A DNA stretch of 64,000 nt from Bacteroidota bacterium (lineage in GTDB: Bacteria; Bacteroidota; Bacteroidia; Sphingobacteriales; Sphingobacteriaceae), in contig JAFDZM010000017.1 in NCBI GenBank assembly GCA_018266915.1, positions 52,639-116,638 on the forward strand. The letters run 5' to 3'. The position numbers were made by a program, and so were the translations under genes. How positions within the stretch are numbered: the first letter of the stretch is position 1; the number at the start of each line of letters is the position of its first letter. The notes below the pieces were generated by a model. The model searched no databases, was not told the DNA's origin, and saw only the letters and a list, made by a program, of their open reading frames with translations. Below are positions 53,782 through 57,583 of this stretch, piece after piece.

Positions 53782-54321
53782 TTATTCAACTTTCTTAAAT
53801 ATCCCCTTCAGATTTCGACCCAATTCCTTGTAATCCAAACCATAACCTACTACAAATTCATTGGCTATTTCGAAGCCGGTGTATTTTAGTTCGGGGATGG
53901 TTCTTTCTAATGCGTCGGGTTTTAGCAACAGGGAACAAACGGTAATGGAAGCCGGCTCGCGGACTTTGAGCTTTTCGATCAGGTAATGCATGGTGTTGCC
54001 GGTATCCACAATATCTTCCACCAATATAATGTCACGGCCCTTGATGTCGATGGTCAAATCGAAATCGTCCCTGATCTTTCGGGTGGTTGAGGTTCCACCG
54101 TAATAAGAAGCTAATTTGGCAAAGGTGACCTCGATAGGTGTTTCGATCTGCTTTACCAGGTCGGCCACAAACAGGAAGCTGCCGCTCAGGATACCTACCA
54201 TTACAGGAATACGTCCTGAATAGTCGCTGCTGATCTGCCCGGCAATTTCGCCAACCCGTTTTTCGATCGATGCATAAGGAATAGATAATTCGAAAGTGAG
54301 ATCGGCTACCTGGGTTTTCAT
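53782..54321 (-). CDS. hpt: Hypoxanthine phosphoribosyltransferase
   Basis: GILSGSFLF, ILVEDIVDTGNT, FVVGYGLD. Start moved to MKTQ at 54321. Confidence 0.93.
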   Translation of the reverse strand: MKTQVADLTFELSIPYASIEKRVGEIAGQISSDYSGRIPVMVGILSGSFLFVADLVKQIETPIEVTFAKLASYYGGTSTTRKIRDDFDLTIDIKGRDIILVEDIVDTGNTMHYLIEKLKVREPASITVCSLLLKPDALERTIPELKYTGFEIANEFVVGYGLDYKELGRNLKGIFKKVE

Positions 54322-54422
54322 GCGGTTAAATGTAGAGATTATAGTTAAGAATATGCAAAGAGTATCCCTAACCAAAATGACTTTGAAAGTAGATTAAGTA
54401 CGAGGCGATGAAAATTTAGTTA

Positions 54423-55085
54423 CTAATTGGTCAATTCGAGTTTAAGTTGAGGGTCGAATAAAGGTTTGCTGTATTCTTTGTCAGACATGTACCGCCAAAT
54501 GCTGTAATCTATGCAAGACCTAGATATTTGAAGAAAATCGGCAGCATATTCTACTATTTTTTTGGTATGATAATATTCTTTAGTTTCGATATTCGCTAAC
54601 TGAACAAAGGAATAAATATGACGGTCTACTGCAACAGTATCAAAATTTAATAGCTTTAATAAGTAGTCTAAAGTTTTTGGTCCAATACCGTTTATTTCCA
54701 AAATCCTTTTTCGGTTTTCATTTTTTAAAAGAAATAATTTCAAGTCAGAACATGTATTTATTCGATTATCCAACAGGAATGAAATTATGTTATTTAACCG
54801 GTTTATTTTTACGGGATGCCTCCAATTGATTATATTTTCCAATCCATAACACTTTATGGTTTCGTTGAAAAAATTAACAGTATAGGCCCCGGGATAATTC
54901 AGAAGTAATTTTTGGACTCTAGGTCTCACAATTTTATTATAATTCAACCCGGCCTGTAATGTAATATCAGTTAATAAAGCACCCATATGATCATATATAG
55001 TCTCCCTTTCAACATAAATAGTTTTAAAGGATTCAAGGCCTATAATAAAATTTGCTAGCTTTCTAGCTTCAGCGACACAAGTCAT
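54423..55085 (-). CDS. HhH-GPD superfamily DNA glycosylase-like protein
   Basis: HhH ILEINGIGPKTLDY followed by AVDRH, and C-terminal IDYSIW. Confidence 0.75.
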   Translation of the reverse strand: MTCVAEARKLANFIIGLESFKTIYVERETIYDHMGALLTDITLQAGLNYNKIVRPRVQKLLLNYPGAYTVNFFNETIKCYGLENIINWRHPVKINRLNNIISFLLDNRINTCSDLKLFLLKNENRKRILEINGIGPKTLDYLLKLLNFDTVAVDRHIYSFVQLANIETKEYYHTKKIVEYAADFLQISRSCIDYSIWRYMSDKEYSKPLFDPQLKLELTN

Positions 55086-55087
55086 AT

Positions 55088-55723
55088 TTAGATTTCAGTT
55101 GTTGCTATTCTTTTTAAAGCATCTAATCTGTCTACACAGTTCGGGCAAGCCCCGCATGGAATTGTGGGAGAAGCTTGACATGAAAAAGTATTCCCAATGG
55201 ACGCTCCTAAATTTATTCCCAATTTCGCGACATCAAATTTTGAATAGTATCTAAAAGGCATATTAATTTTTACAGATCCATATTCGGATAGCATTCCTTC
55301 CATTTTTTCAAAAAACTCATTGGAACAATCAATTTCTTTAGCATGGTTGCTATTAATGAAAGCTGAATACACATTTGATAATCCAATAGTCTGCGCAAAA
55401 GTAGCACCAATTGTTAATAATAATACATTTCGGTACGGAATATAGAGATCATCAGCTTTAATATCGTCTTCCCATAAATTGGCTGGTTTTATGAACTTAG
55501 ATGTTGACCTTTTGTAAACAGACTGTATATCAATTATTTCAATTTTATTGATATGAGTTTTAGGCAAAACCTCCTTAAGGGTTTCAAATTCTGTTTGGGC
55601 GCAATGCTGACCATAATTAATAAAAAGAGGAACAAAATCAATCCCTTGATCTATTAACCAAAACGCCATAGTGGTGGAATCAAGTCCCCCTGAGGCTAAT
55701 AAAACGCCGTCTCTATTTGTCAT
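55088..55723 (-). CDS. QueC-family PP-loop ATPase (7-cyano-7-deazaguanine synthase-like)
   Basis: SGGLDS, NYGQ, YIPYRN, FSC-x7-CGACPNC zinc site. Confidence 0.92.
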   Translation of the reverse strand: MTNRDGVLLASGGLDSTTMAFWLIDQGIDFVPLFINYGQHCAQTEFETLKEVLPKTHINKIEIIDIQSVYKRSTSKFIKPANLWEDDIKADDLYIPYRNVLLLTIGATFAQTIGLSNVYSAFINSNHAKEIDCSNEFFEKMEGMLSEYGSVKINMPFRYYSKFDVAKLGINLGASIGNTFSCQASPTIPCGACPNCVDRLDALKRIATTEI

Positions 55724-57038
55724 AACTATTTATAATAAATACTTGGGAAATGATTTCATCCAAGTCACTTGAAACTAAAATTGGCAATTCTGTCAACATA
55801 CAATTCTCAGCTATTTTATACGGATCGTATACCATCACAGGTTTAGATCGTGCAGCGGCAAATCCAATTTCAATTAATGTACCTGGATCGTTATATAGTA
55901 AAACTGCGATAAGCATTTTGCATTGATCTAATAGTCTAATATCATTAGTAAACAGCTCACGTTTGCGTGTGCTGGACGCATCTTTTTCCATTTGTCCGTT
56001 CTCTTTAATCGGTCGTCTTGGACTAAAATTGTGATATTTCAAGCTCTCAACCAATAATTCAATTGGTGCAGTGTTTATGAAATCGAAATCAGGAGCTGCT
56101 ATGTAAATGTTTATTTGTTTACGGGATTCCCATGGAAGGTTTACACCACCCATACAAACCAATTCATCTATGTTTGATTTTAATATTCTTTTTACTCCAG
56201 TTTTAAAATCATCCGGGTATGTAGTTGTTGCATATTCCATTGCTACCCAAGATGATATATTTAATGCACTTTCGTAGGTTAGCATGGGATAGTGACATAT
56301 ATAGGAAGCATTATACACATCGCCCACCCCGACAGAATGCACAATTGGCCTAGTTTGAGCAGGCACTGAAACTAATTCATTCGTTTCAAAATCAAATGCT
56401 CGACTTCCGCCTCTATTCTCCTTTAATATTAATCGTTCAGTAATGTCTGTAAAATGATCTTTGAAACCCATGAAATCATTCTTGTATAGATTTCTAAACA
56501 ATTCTGATGATGTTGAAATAAATAATGTACTTAGTTTATTTGTTAAATCCTTAAATAGCGACAGGTCTGTTAAATTGTTTGCAACGTCGATATGAATTCT
56601 GCTTTTTGTCGTTTTGGATTTAATAATGTCAAACTCGTAATTACCCGAAATAAACAATAAGTCATCGTAGTTATTACTACCTAGCTTATCAATAGCAGAT
56701 GAATAATATTCCAATTTAATATCGTCTCGAAGTATAAATTCGTATCCTTGATCGCCAACTTCTTTGGCCTCATTTATTAAAAATACATAAGGTGCGCCAT
56801 TAACAGTCCCAAGCTTAAGAATCTCGTTACATCCAAGAGATTTGAGATATTTTTCAATTGATTCGTCTAAATAAGAAGGAGCAAAATAACCAACATCAAA
56901 TTCAATATTTAATGCCCATAAGCATCTAGCTGCATGAATTATGCCTCCAAGTCTTAATTTGATACCTTCTTCTGAAGTTTTTAAGGTAATATCTACAACA
57001 ACGTCGCCGATTAGACAAATTTTTGATTTAGATATCAT
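55713..57038 (-). CDS. PfkB/ribokinase-family kinase fused to nucleoside 2-deoxyribosyltransferase (NDT)-like domain
   Basis: IGDVVVD, LGG, LILKENRGGS, SVGVGD. C-terminal IYIAAPDF...NDIRLLD...DPGTLIEIGFA...KPV. Confidence 0.82.
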   Translation of the reverse strand: MISKSKICLIGDVVVDITLKTSEEGIKLRLGGIIHAARCLWALNIEFDVGYFAPSYLDESIEKYLKSLGCNEILKLGTVNGAPYVFLINEAKEVGDQGYEFILRDDIKLEYYSSAIDKLGSNNYDDLLFISGNYEFDIIKSKTTKSRIHIDVANNLTDLSLFKDLTNKLSTLFISTSSELFRNLYKNDFMGFKDHFTDITERLILKENRGGSRAFDFETNELVSVPAQTRPIVHSVGVGDVYNASYICHYPMLTYESALNISSWVAMEYATTTYPDDFKTGVKRILKSNIDELVCMGGVNLPWESRKQINIYIAAPDFDFINTAPIELLVESLKYHNFSPRRPIKENGQMEKDASSTRKRELFTNDIRLLDQCKMLIAVLLYNDPGTLIEIGFAAARSKPVMVYDPYKIAENCMLTELPILVSSDLDEIISQVFIINSYDK

Positions 57039-57409
57039 AATGGCGCAATATCAACCTTCACGTATGGCATTGGCTTAATAGATGAGGCGGTAACAACACC
57101 AGCATAATTAAAACCGTTGTCTATACAAACTTTAATATAGTTAAATTTAGTAGGTAAATATCCTACCCCAGTTCCGTCGCTAGTTGTTACTAGTAAACGA
57201 ATGTTGTTGAAAATAACTTTGACATTAGTTCCGACAGGTGGTACATCATTGTTCATCTTGTAGTAGTCACATCTAGAAACATCTTCAAGTACCGCTTCAA
57301 AAGCTTGCCCACAATTATCTTGCCCACTTGATCCACCAGAAGATGGATTTGAGCTAGTTGGTTTATTATTAGAGTAATCGGTTAAAGAACCAGAGCCTGA
57401 GCTTCCCAT
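57035..57409 (-). CDS. Small protein with N-terminal Gly/Ser tail (MGSSGSG...) and HIRAN-like core
   Basis: About 30-aa G/S-rich N-terminus. VGTNVKV...LLVTTSDGTGVGYLP...IDNGFNYAGVV resembles the HIRAN pattern. Confidence 0.65.
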   Translation of the reverse strand: MGSSGSGSLTDYSNNKPTSSNPSSGGSSGQDNCGQAFEAVLEDVSRCDYYKMNNDVPPVGTNVKVIFNNIRLLVTTSDGTGVGYLPTKFNYIKVCIDNGFNYAGVVTASSIKPMPYVKVDIAPL

Positions 57410-57568
57410 AATTTATTTTTTAGGTTAATAAAAGGTTTATTGATTTCGAAGGTATTGATCATAAGAAATACTCGCAACCCGTGAAAACACCCATTTTTAT
57501 CCCAATTTTGTTTTTATAACCAAAATCTTTCCAACTTCCGGTCTTCCCCACTTTCATAGATAAAATCC

Positions 57569-57576
57569 TATCTTTG
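57569..57576 (+). promoter_or_regulatory. -7 promoter element for M16 peptidase
   Basis: TATCTTTG, 7 nt before the ATG. Confidence 0.6.
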
Positions 57577-57583
57577 CTCCCTC

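Follow-up and report, generated by a model that had tools for sequence, protein, structure and literature searches.

The window analysed here is a 64,000-nucleotide stretch of contig JAFDZM010000017.1 (positions 52,639 to 116,638, forward strand) of the Bacteroidota assembly GCA_018266915.1. Within it lies a cassette of four tightly coupled minus-strand genes, referred to below as A, B, C and D. Gene A (57409..57035) encodes 124 amino acids, gene B (57038..55713) 441, gene C (55723..55088) 211 and gene D (55085..54423) 220. A and B overlap by 4 nucleotides (ATGA), B and C overlap by 11 nucleotides, and a gap of 2 nucleotides separates C from D. A sequence-only reading of this DNA had described four such coupled open reading frames (ORFs) with these overlaps, and both coordinates and junctions proved exact. 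A combines a Gly-start tail with a HIRAN-like domain, B is a fusion of a PfkB-type kinase and a nucleoside deoxyribosyltransferase (NDT), C is a QueC-family enzyme and D resembles the Ogg2/Cap11 glycosylases. We present below the evidence that these genes form a mobile module built around the predicted attachment of a nucleobase to the N-terminus of A.

To begin with conservation, one genome per species (185,579 genomes) was scanned with B only as the query, the best 80 of 157 relatives were kept, and A to D were located in those 80 loci by hidden Markov model searches of six-frame ORFs. The four genes share one strand and keep their order in 78 of the 80 loci, with A intact in 77, and the hosts belong to more than eight phyla. 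The sequence-only reading had proposed a conserved four-gene module centred on QueC and had suggested collecting homologous cassettes to check gene order; with 78 loci syntenic and 77 intact, both module and order are borne out. Recurrence of the intact, same-order arrangement in 77 of 80 genomes retrieved via B alone places it far beyond chance.

Residues 1-29 of A (57323..57409, minus strand) form an N-terminal tail, MGSSGSGSLTDYSNNKPTSSNPSSGGSSG, which we propose to be an acceptor arm whose Gly2 would be exposed once Met1 is removed. AlphaFold2 predicts this tail to be disordered, with a predicted local distance difference test (pLDDT) score below 50, while the remaining domain scores above 90. 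M1, G2, S3, G5, D11 and Y12 are invariant among 24 homologues, and the N-terminus, MGS[ST]G[ST]Gx[FL][ST]DY, is the most conserved part of the protein. An MG[ST] start is found in 103 of 127 full-length A representatives and in essentially all A genes of the 80 genome loci, across which the first Cys of A falls at position 30-42. The tail resembles the N-terminus of CdnD, GGSGGSFGSGFD, and the MGTS motif of QatB. CdnD is the cGAS/DncV-like nucleotidyltransferase (CD-NTase) of CBASS type IV (an anti-phage signalling system based on cyclic oligonucleotides), where a module made of QueC-like Cap9, tRNA-guanine transglycosylase (TGT)-like Cap10 and OGG-like Cap11 acts on its N-terminus (Wassarman et al. 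2025, bioRxiv 10.1101/2025.04.06.647259). Proteins that serve as N-terminal 7-deazaguanine (NDG) substrates have three hallmarks: a QueC-family enzyme is their partner, their N-terminus is long and unstructured, and it begins with a Met-Gly motif that is essential, MGGS in CdnD and MGTS in QatB (PMC13279940). A displays all three sequence features described in that work, namely an MG[ST] start, a long disordered tail and a QueC-family partner.

The rest of A (residues 30-124 plus stop, 57035..57322, minus strand) is a predicted HIRAN-like beta domain. Foldseek matched it to the HIRAN domain of HLTF (4s0n, 6kcs and 4xzg; probability 1.0, E 2e-3 to 9e-3, template modelling (TM) scores 0.47-0.57) and also to lp_0118 (3k2y, E 5e-4). 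At the sequence level, Pfam HIRAN (PF08797) weakly matched 3 of 24 family members (best E 0.018), no family match was returned for the window protein by Pfam, PADLOC or NCBIfam, and a sequence-profile search of the PDB gave nothing meaningful. The HIRAN-like assignment of the sequence-only reading thus holds at the level of the fold, given the pLDDT above 90 and the Foldseek match to HLTF HIRAN, and is marginal at the level of sequence. A word search returned 30 members of the A family, and 313 clusters at 50% identity were found among 1.84 billion representatives, nearly all of them standalone proteins of 110-140 amino acids aligned from residue 1. The nearest homologue is from a Mucilaginibacter metagenome-assembled genome (MAG).

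Gene C (55088..55723, minus strand) encodes a QueC-family, predicted ATP-dependent ligase, with SGGLDS at residues 11-16, YGQH..E at 37-47, YIPYRN at 94-99, INSNHAKEIDC at 123-133 and a Cys cluster at 181-199. Its membership of the QueC family, already recognised in the sequence-only reading, is supported by Pfam (E 1e-35). Among PADLOC models, C matches the type IV CBASS QueC (Cap9, PDLC00911) at E 7e-27 and QatC at 0.019; the NCBIfam QatC model gives 13.9 bits for a cut-off of 280. PDB matches are B. subtilis QueC (3bl5) and Cap9 (9nto, 3e-10). Homologues of C number at least 471 proteins. Among 88 C homologues, SGGLDS is invariant, and NYGQH..E, YIPYRN, INSNHAKEIDC and the zinc cysteines are almost invariant. 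The catalytic set of Cap9 and QueC is retained in C: SGGxDS, the Ile of FINYGQ that contacts adenine, the RN motif, the Asp and Cys of YxDC, and the cysteines for Zn. The key residues reported for Cap9 are the pyrophosphate loop, the adenine-contact Ile, a stacking Arg, a base-binding Asp and the stacking Tyr115 (Wassarman et al. 2025, bioRxiv 10.1101/2025.04.06.647259), and the first four are retained in C. Where canonical QueC has ETDFSGYPDC, C has NSNHAKEIDC.

Canonical QueC (preQ0 synthase) was considered as the identity of C and ruled out. C scores below the canonical equivalog cut-offs (TIGR00364, 101.2 versus 150.3 bits; PRK11106, 38 versus 378), the YPDC-type motif is replaced, and no que or tgt gene is found among the gene calls within 10 kb on either side of the cassette, in line with the absence of queD, queE, queF and tgt already remarked upon from the sequence. 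By its sequence, C is a non-canonical QueC, closest to CBASS Cap9.

The start of A and the active-site motif of C vary together. In the roughly 112 cassettes with an MG start that were checked, C carries NSNHAxE[IL]DC or something close to it, and E130 is never lost (of 115 C sequences in the motif scan, 3 did not fit the search pattern). Some 14 of 127 A representatives (about 11%) start with MES or MDS rather than MGS and still lie in full A-B-C-D cassettes. In ME-start cassettes, the C motif FINSNHAxE[IL]DC becomes FI[QED]S[ND][LV]A..G.DC, so that H127 is lost and position 130 is Gly or Ala. Looking from the side of the enzyme, A starts with MES in 4 of 4 cassettes examined in the variant-motif C clade, a tally that includes the two loci readable in a reverse search from variant-motif C proteins, both with an MES-start A. 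ME-type A genes lie at L121:6001-6420, L122:4453-4839, L124:3245-3676 and L125:1046-1477; for three further ME-type A look-ups the contigs were too short to show C, and the one locus brought up by a metagenome scan for further cassettes of this type was MG-type. A neighbour-joining tree places the variant C proteins in one clade, which is deep (43-64% identity). We infer that such a swap of a carboxylate from position 130 of the enzyme to position 2 of the substrate would be expected if the first residues of A occupy the active site of C.

Gene B encodes two domains. Residues 1-300 (56139..57038, minus strand) form a ribokinase/PfkB-fold domain with GG at 31-32 and GVGD at 237-240 (codons 56319-56330), and residues 308-441 plus stop (55713..56117, minus strand) an NDT domain with YIAAPDF at 312-318 and DPGTLIEIG at 384-392, in which Glu390 is the predicted nucleophile. 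The NDT domain is matched by Pfam PF05014 over residues 311-405 (54.7 bits for a cut-off of 28.8, E 1e-14). A profile of B also matches the NDT 6evs, the catalytic Glu aligning with the E390 region, as well as the CMP N-glycosidase MilB, an NDT-fold hydrolase. E390, D384, Y312 and D317 are invariant in homologues, as are G31, G32, G237, G239 and D240 of the kinase domain. Over the N-terminal 300 residues of the window protein, Pfam and NCBIfam make no call, and across the B family Pfam PfkB is reached by 2 of 18 members at 0.014, below threshold. The AlphaFold2 model (pLDDT 93, predicted TM score 0.92) is matched by Foldseek to ketohexokinase (E 2e-14), ribokinase, a M. jannaschii nucleoside kinase and M. 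tuberculosis adenosine kinase, with E values from 2e-14 to 1e-11. The PfkB-NDT architecture proposed from the sequence is therefore supported by Pfam for the NDT half and by predicted structure for the kinase half, which Pfam does not see.

Two of the Foldseek neighbours of B, 6c9n and 6c67, are M. tuberculosis adenosine kinase with sangivamycin and iodotubercidin, and are one match among many to the ribokinase family. Both ligands are 7-substituted 7-deazapurine nucleosides, indicating that this kinase fold has room for nucleosides of that kind.

B and C are fused into a single protein of 658 amino acids in megaplasmids of the Bacillus cereus group, where A and a NUDIX gene precede the fusion. 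At one such locus (L114:6109-8962, Bacillus mycoides plasmid p509), the NUDIX gene just upstream of A matches the PADLOC candidate PDC-S07 (3e-16), and an AAA ATPase and a retron-type HNH endonuclease are close by. The pairing of B and C has a precedent in the literature: in a PF06508 network, about 89% of the neighbourhoods of the "Cluster 4" QueC clade contain a PfkB-NDT fusion (PF00294-PF05014), and purine salvage was proposed as the role of the clade (Libby, de Crecy-Lagard, Hutinet et al., Biochem J 2026, PMC13329287). Proteins of this clade are slightly shorter than QueC, carry SGGxDS, a YGQ...E variant and a variant Cys signature, and are mainly proteobacterial (PMC13329287). C shows SGGLDS, YGQHCAQTEFE, CQ(x)6CxxCxxC and an overlapping PfkB-NDT gene, with spacings slightly off the printed motifs, and the cassette almost certainly contains this clade as judged from these shared features.

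Gene D (54423..55085, minus strand) encodes a putative Ogg2/Cap11-like helix-hairpin-helix (HhH) DNA glycosylase/apurinic-apyrimidinic (AP) lyase, with GIGPKTLDY (Lys137) and AVDRH (Asp154). Matches of the single window sequence are weak, the PADLOC OGG model PDLC00910 being reached at 4e-4. A profile of 38 homologues matches Ogg2-type 8-oxoguanine glycosylase/AP lyases (9o00, 3fhg) at E 5e-6, with alignment of the C-terminal half only, as well as MagIII and EndoIII. Neither K137 nor D154 varies, and the two line up with the Lys and Asp that are catalytic in Ogg2, at the spacing of about 17-18 residues typical of such enzymes. The same PADLOC model, that of the type IV CBASS OGG (Cap11), is reached by 26 of the 38 D homologues (best 7e-10), and Pfam Ogg-HhH by only 2. 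The profile agrees with the HhH glycosylase predicted from sequence, and the motifs SGGLDS, GVGD, GTLIE and AVDRH are all present where that prediction had placed them.

We then considered how the cassette is distributed. It is rare, with 157 relatives in 185,579 species genomes (about 0.08%), and its hosts include Bacteroidota, Alpha-, Beta- and Gammaproteobacteria, deltaproteobacterial lineages (Desulfotalea, Bdellovibrionales), Acidobacteriota, Planctomycetota, Verrucomicrobiota, TM6 and Ignavibacteriota; it is also present in Stenotrophomonas (GD03930, L001, for example), in Proteus (P. mirabilis H63, L128:8596-11586) and in Halomonas (L063). Copies are found on plasmids and megaplasmids and on 25 IMG/VR contigs. 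GenBank phage genomes contained no B homologue, and nothing that matches the Proteus cassette at the DNA level was found in 5,426 complete E. coli genomes. The GC content of the window cassette is 0.339 and that of its flanks 0.434 overall (0.30-0.36 inside and 0.43-0.47 outside in a windowed profile), delimiting a low-GC island at 54380..57500 and agreeing with the AT-richness pointed out earlier. In 69 of 76 other loci, too, the cassette is lower in GC than its surroundings (median -3.7 points, Wilcoxon p 8e-13). Damage or mis-assembly affects some copies: an in-frame stop interrupts A at L065:9560-9974, a locus within the 78, frameshifts split B in two IMG/VR contigs, and in one MAG the reading frames of B and C are merged; such copies lie at L093:7998-9331, L113:352-1672 and L020:9980-11930. 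Of the two loci among the 80 that fall outside the 78, L088 has no A and L022 no D.

The genes around the cassette show no conservation. Of 1,112 ORFs in the flanks, even the most frequent family, a dGTPase (HD plus HD_assoc), is present in no more than 13 of 80 loci, up to three genes away from the cassette and with PADLOC dGTPase matches down to 5e-141. It stands on either side and in either orientation, in Bacteroidota, TM6, Ignavibacteriota, Vibrionaceae and Rhizobiales (L018:12678-14258, L027:12629-14083, L078:12612-13976, L053, L055, L070, L081, L083, L023, L037, L040 and L048), and is found again outside the 80 at L122:8664-10007. This proximity could reflect co-location in defence islands, or a supply of deoxyguanosine from dGTP as donor for the NDT. 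Other neighbours include Septu PtuAB, Shedu, an integrase and RES-Xre at L005, a ThsB-like TIR protein and a Panacea-domain protein at L124, and elsewhere MazE-PIN, resolvases, HipA and an N6-methylase; a KAP NTPase appears once among 136 immediate neighbours. The sequence-only reading had named defence-island co-location as a check, and the contexts found are variable, low in GC and, in uncontrolled counts, often rich in defence genes. As judged from gene order, base composition and context, A-B-C-D shows the pattern of a conserved, horizontally mobile accessory module of the kind often seen in defence islands.

In six Bacteroidota loci, an NsnB/AriA-like ATPase and a PIN_3 protein form a pair near the cassette (L009:7790-9602, L010, L011, L012, L015 and L026, and also L006:8196-9991). 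The two genes, an AAA_15/AAA_21 ATPase of about 430 amino acids and a PIN_3 protein of about 170, lie on the same strand directly before the cassette at a distance of 6-32 nucleotides, and could act either as a defence pair in their own right or as a module accessory to the cassette.

In the window itself, which belongs to a metagenome contig of 203 kb, JGI (Joint Genome Institute) gene calls and domains place Pribosyltran (hpt) on one side of the cassette and Peptidase_M16 followed by peptide deformylase on the other, the setting between hpt and an M16 peptidase that had been recognised from the sequence. The region between A and the M16 peptidase gene (57410..57583), the sole non-coding gap upstream of A and bordered by a divergent M16 gene, is the presumed promoter region of the operon. 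Scans for sigma-70-like promoters and for terminators gave no more matches than expected from shuffled sequence, Rfam detected no RNA or riboswitch in or beside the cassette, and no flanking direct or inverted repeats suggesting an insertion mechanism were found. An empty-site search via the exact hpt protein returned only the same contig and one near-identical assembly, both cassette-positive. The mechanical hpt ORF (53782-54375) starts with TTG at 54375 (197 amino acids), and the JGI call with ATG at 54321 (179 amino acids). With the JGI start, D and hpt are about 100 nucleotides apart, and because no terminator-like hairpin was detected in this gap, transcriptional read-through from the cassette into hpt is possible.

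Taken together, these observations suggest a self-contained and mobile system, most likely directed at phages or mobile elements, built on the conjugation of a nucleobase to a protein N-terminus; we assign this reading as a whole a probability of about 0.42. Its parts differ in strength. That C modifies the N-terminus of A is probable given the homology of C, the anatomy of A and their co-variation, and the balance of distribution and context tilts towards a defence role. In the mechanism that we propose, Met1 of A would be removed and C would adenylate a carboxylated base at the expense of ATP, with 7-carboxy-7-deazaguanine, supplied by the host queuosine pathway, as the likeliest candidate, before ligating this base to the alpha-amine of Gly2 on the tail, as Cap9 does on CdnD. 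From domain chemistry, the NDT of B would then take the role of TGT-like Cap10, with the free N9 of the tethered base as deoxyribosyl acceptor and a 2'-deoxynucleoside, plausibly deoxyguanosine, as donor, giving a protein-tethered deoxynucleoside. A neighbouring dGTPase would supply deoxyguanosine, an ordinary NDT donor, and with that donor the reaction would amount to a guanine-for-deazaguanine exchange such as TGT enzymes perform. The PfkB domain, we infer, would go on to phosphorylate the sugar, yielding a protein-tethered nucleotide. As written, these deoxyribosylation and phosphorylation steps are doubtful. More speculatively, the HIRAN-like domain would bring the tail to DNA 3'-OH ends, or sense them, so that phage replication is blocked. 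Finally, D would cleave the glycosidic bond and thereby reset or limit the reaction, by analogy with the role that Wassarman et al. 2025 (bioRxiv 10.1101/2025.04.06.647259) proposed for Cap11. The sequence-only reading had instead suggested sensing or recycling of modified bases from phage DNA; this finds no specific support, and the evidence favours conjugation of a base to the N-terminus of A.

A bolder version, which we consider quite unlikely, takes the N-terminal Gly of A as the carrier of a complete nucleotide, with the base added by C, a deoxyribose placed at N9 by the NDT and a 5'-phosphate by PfkB. The HIRAN domain would deliver this nucleotide to DNA 3'-OH ends, covalently capping or jamming phage DNA, and D would excise the adduct to protect or reset the host. 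If true, this would constitute a new post-translational modification, in which a nucleotide is joined to a protein via its base, and a new defence principle, and it would explain what purpose the free N9 of the conjugated base serves in type IV CBASS.

Several observations weigh against N-terminal conjugation in defence as the function of the cassette. The stacking Tyr115 of Cap9 is Glu130 in C, where the whole base-pocket motif is unlike that of QueC and Cap9, and because of this divergence the molecule loaded by C may not be 7-carboxy-7-deazaguanine. About 11% of A representatives start with ME or MD, and such a start should block removal of Met. In type IV CBASS, a G2D change inactivated CdnD. 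Since the variant C proteins form one clade, the co-variation of A and C represents a single evolutionary event and not repeated convergence. Turning to the other genes, the NxxE motif of PfkB proteins is not evident in B, D is absent from L022 and from the Bacillus fusion locus, and no classical toxic effector is encoded in the cassette. Lastly, many loci, the window included, have purely housekeeping neighbours, and the tallies of defence neighbours are raw, uncontrolled counts.

The same genes can be read in other ways. In one, the product of tagging is a gate: C would tag A, whose tagged tail would plug or regulate B until the HIRAN domain senses DNA ends on infection; B, once freed, would destroy or divert deoxynucleosides or deoxynucleotides, its NDT acting as a hydrolase and its PfkB trapping the sugar, so that phage replication is starved, with adjacent dGTPases cooperating. 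There is a parallel in type IV CBASS, where the tagged N-terminus occupies the Cap10 active site and keeps the CD-NTase inactive; NDT-fold hydrolases such as MilB, matched by the B profile, exist; and a dGTPase sits beside the cassette in 13 of 80 loci and in L122. Against this, the Bacillus B-C fusion fits an assembly line better than an inhibitor-effector pair, the sequence of B does not distinguish hydrolase from transferase, and dGTPase is absent from most loci, including the window. We regard this gated depletion as a minority possibility. A second, rather unlikely, alternative dispenses with the tagging of A, which would only be a DNA-binding regulator or scaffold; here C, B and D would produce or alter, in free form, a 7-deazapurine deoxynucleoside or deoxynucleotide, for example as an antiviral nucleotide analogue or as a precursor for DNA modification. 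Combining an NDT with a kinase of the nucleoside type makes sense as a way to turn a base into a deoxynucleotide, QueC homologues do make free preQ0 in the queuosine pathway, and C keeps most QueC catalytic motifs. Such a pathway leaves unexplained, however, why the MGS[ST]G[ST]G start of A is invariant and its tail disordered, why residue 2 of A co-varies with the active-site motif of C and why C does not reach the QueC equivalog cut-offs, and queD, queE and folE do not accompany the cassette.

A third alternative, a housekeeping operon for purine or deazapurine salvage, as Libby et al. 2026 proposed for Cluster 4 (PMC13329287), has the published annotation on its side, all three enzymes handle nucleobases or nucleosides, and hpt adjoins the cassette in the window. 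This adjacency is unique to the window locus and shared by none of the others, and was thus ruled out as evidence for salvage. A sporadic presence in about 0.08% of species genomes, a GC content lower than that of the host in 69 of 76 loci, non-conserved flanks that often carry defence genes or mobile elements, occurrence on plasmids and IMG/VR contigs and the lack of an Rfam riboswitch in or beside the cassette all speak against a housekeeping function, and neither a strictly co-conserved non-enzymatic HIRAN protein nor a DNA glycosylase/lyase has a role in salvage. We therefore hold it to be very unlikely. Even less probable, and in our view extremely so, is modification of the host's own DNA in the manner of Dpd, with D excising guanine, B and C installing a 7-deazaguanine derivative and A binding DNA. 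The cassette does encode a DNA glycosylase, a DNA-binding fold of HIRAN-like type and a homologue of QueC, but neither the cassette nor its recurrent neighbours include a DpdA/TGT-type DNA transglycosylase, a restriction partner or preQ0 pathway genes; NDT enzymes work on nucleosides, and DNA is not known to be among their substrates. With its defining genes missing, the Dpd-like family was ruled out.

The conjugation of 7-deazaguanine to protein N-termini is a discovery of 2025-2026, made in type IV CBASS and QatABCD. If N-terminal conjugation is indeed what the cassette performs, it would provide a third, independent architecture with the same QueC-type ligase and Ogg-like partner, and with a cargo of a fold known to grip DNA 3' ends. 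Our interest in it stems from the replacement of the least understood enzyme of type IV CBASS, the TGT-like one, by two enzymes of predictable chemistry, one transferring deoxyribose to the N9 of a purine and the other phosphorylating the sugar. The masses predicted on Gly2 of the 124-residue A would be +176 Da (NDG), then about +116 Da and then +80 Da, and adducts on A could reveal what follows tagging in systems with QueC-family taggers. The published "purine salvage" annotation would be corrected, and an unnamed candidate defence system added for soil, marine and gut bacteria of many phyla. The cassette might also offer an enzymatic route to site-specific N-terminal protein-nucleotide conjugates.

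Finally, we compared the cassette with known systems. With type IV CBASS it has in common that C is nearest the Cap9 model (7e-27, and 9nto among structures), that D is nearest the Cap11 model (26 of 38) and that the flexible, Met-Gly-Ser/Gly-rich N-terminus of A resembles the M(G/S)G(G/S)GG motif of CdnD. It differs in having no CD-NTase, no TGT-like Cap10 and no cyclic-nucleotide effector; the predicted substrate is a 124-residue HIRAN-like protein, a PfkB-NDT fusion stands in place of the base-transfer enzyme, and Glu130 in place of Tyr115. Pfam, PADLOC and NCBIfam detected no CD-NTase in A to D and no TGT domain in the cassette, nor was a CD-NTase among the top families of the 136 immediate neighbours. 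With CD-NTase, TGT and effector missing, type IV CBASS was ruled out as the family. In QatABCD, the QueC-family enzyme QatC has QatB as its substrate (PMC13279940, PMC13376578, PMC13639016). The likeness here lies in a four-gene, defence-type operon that pairs a QueC-family enzyme with a small partner devoid of catalytic motifs, and in the long disordered tail and MG start of that partner, the MG(T/S)S motif being essential in QatB. In contrast to QatC (about 400 amino acids), C has 211 and lacks the N- and C-terminal extensions, and QatC models barely match it (0.019); A is beta-rich and HIRAN-like whereas QatB is helical; and the cassette has neither the KAP ATPase QatA nor the TatD nuclease QatD. 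QatABCD was ruled out on the absence of QatA, QatD and the QatC extensions. The sequence-only reading had seen that QueC and a glycosylase are common to the cassette and type IV CBASS, and that CD-NTase, TGT, TatD and a QatA-like ATPase are missing, and profile searches confirm it.

Two further comparisons concern single components. The domain of A has its predicted fold in common with the HIRAN domain of HLTF/Rad5 (probability 1.0, TM about 0.55), but A stands alone as a bacterial protein, carries a conserved tail with a Gly start and has marginal sequence similarity to it. Relative to Cluster 4 as published (PMC13329287), A, D and the defence-island context were not reported there, A and D being below Pfam threshold, and the mainly proteobacterial clade of that study is here equally common in Bacteroidota. 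No PADLOC v2 system matches the whole cassette and no model covers A or B, and a literature search on QueC with PfkB and NDT, deazaguanylation, HIRAN with QueC and HIRAN with NDT returned nothing else relevant and no name for the cassette. The suggestion made from the sequence that this is not a named system therefore stands as far as PADLOC v2 and the literature go, while the QueC clade and its pairing with PfkB-NDT had already been published (PMC13329287). On our analysis, the best reading of the cassette is as an unnamed third member, alongside type IV CBASS and QatABCD, of the QueC-family systems that attach a base to the N-terminus of a protein.

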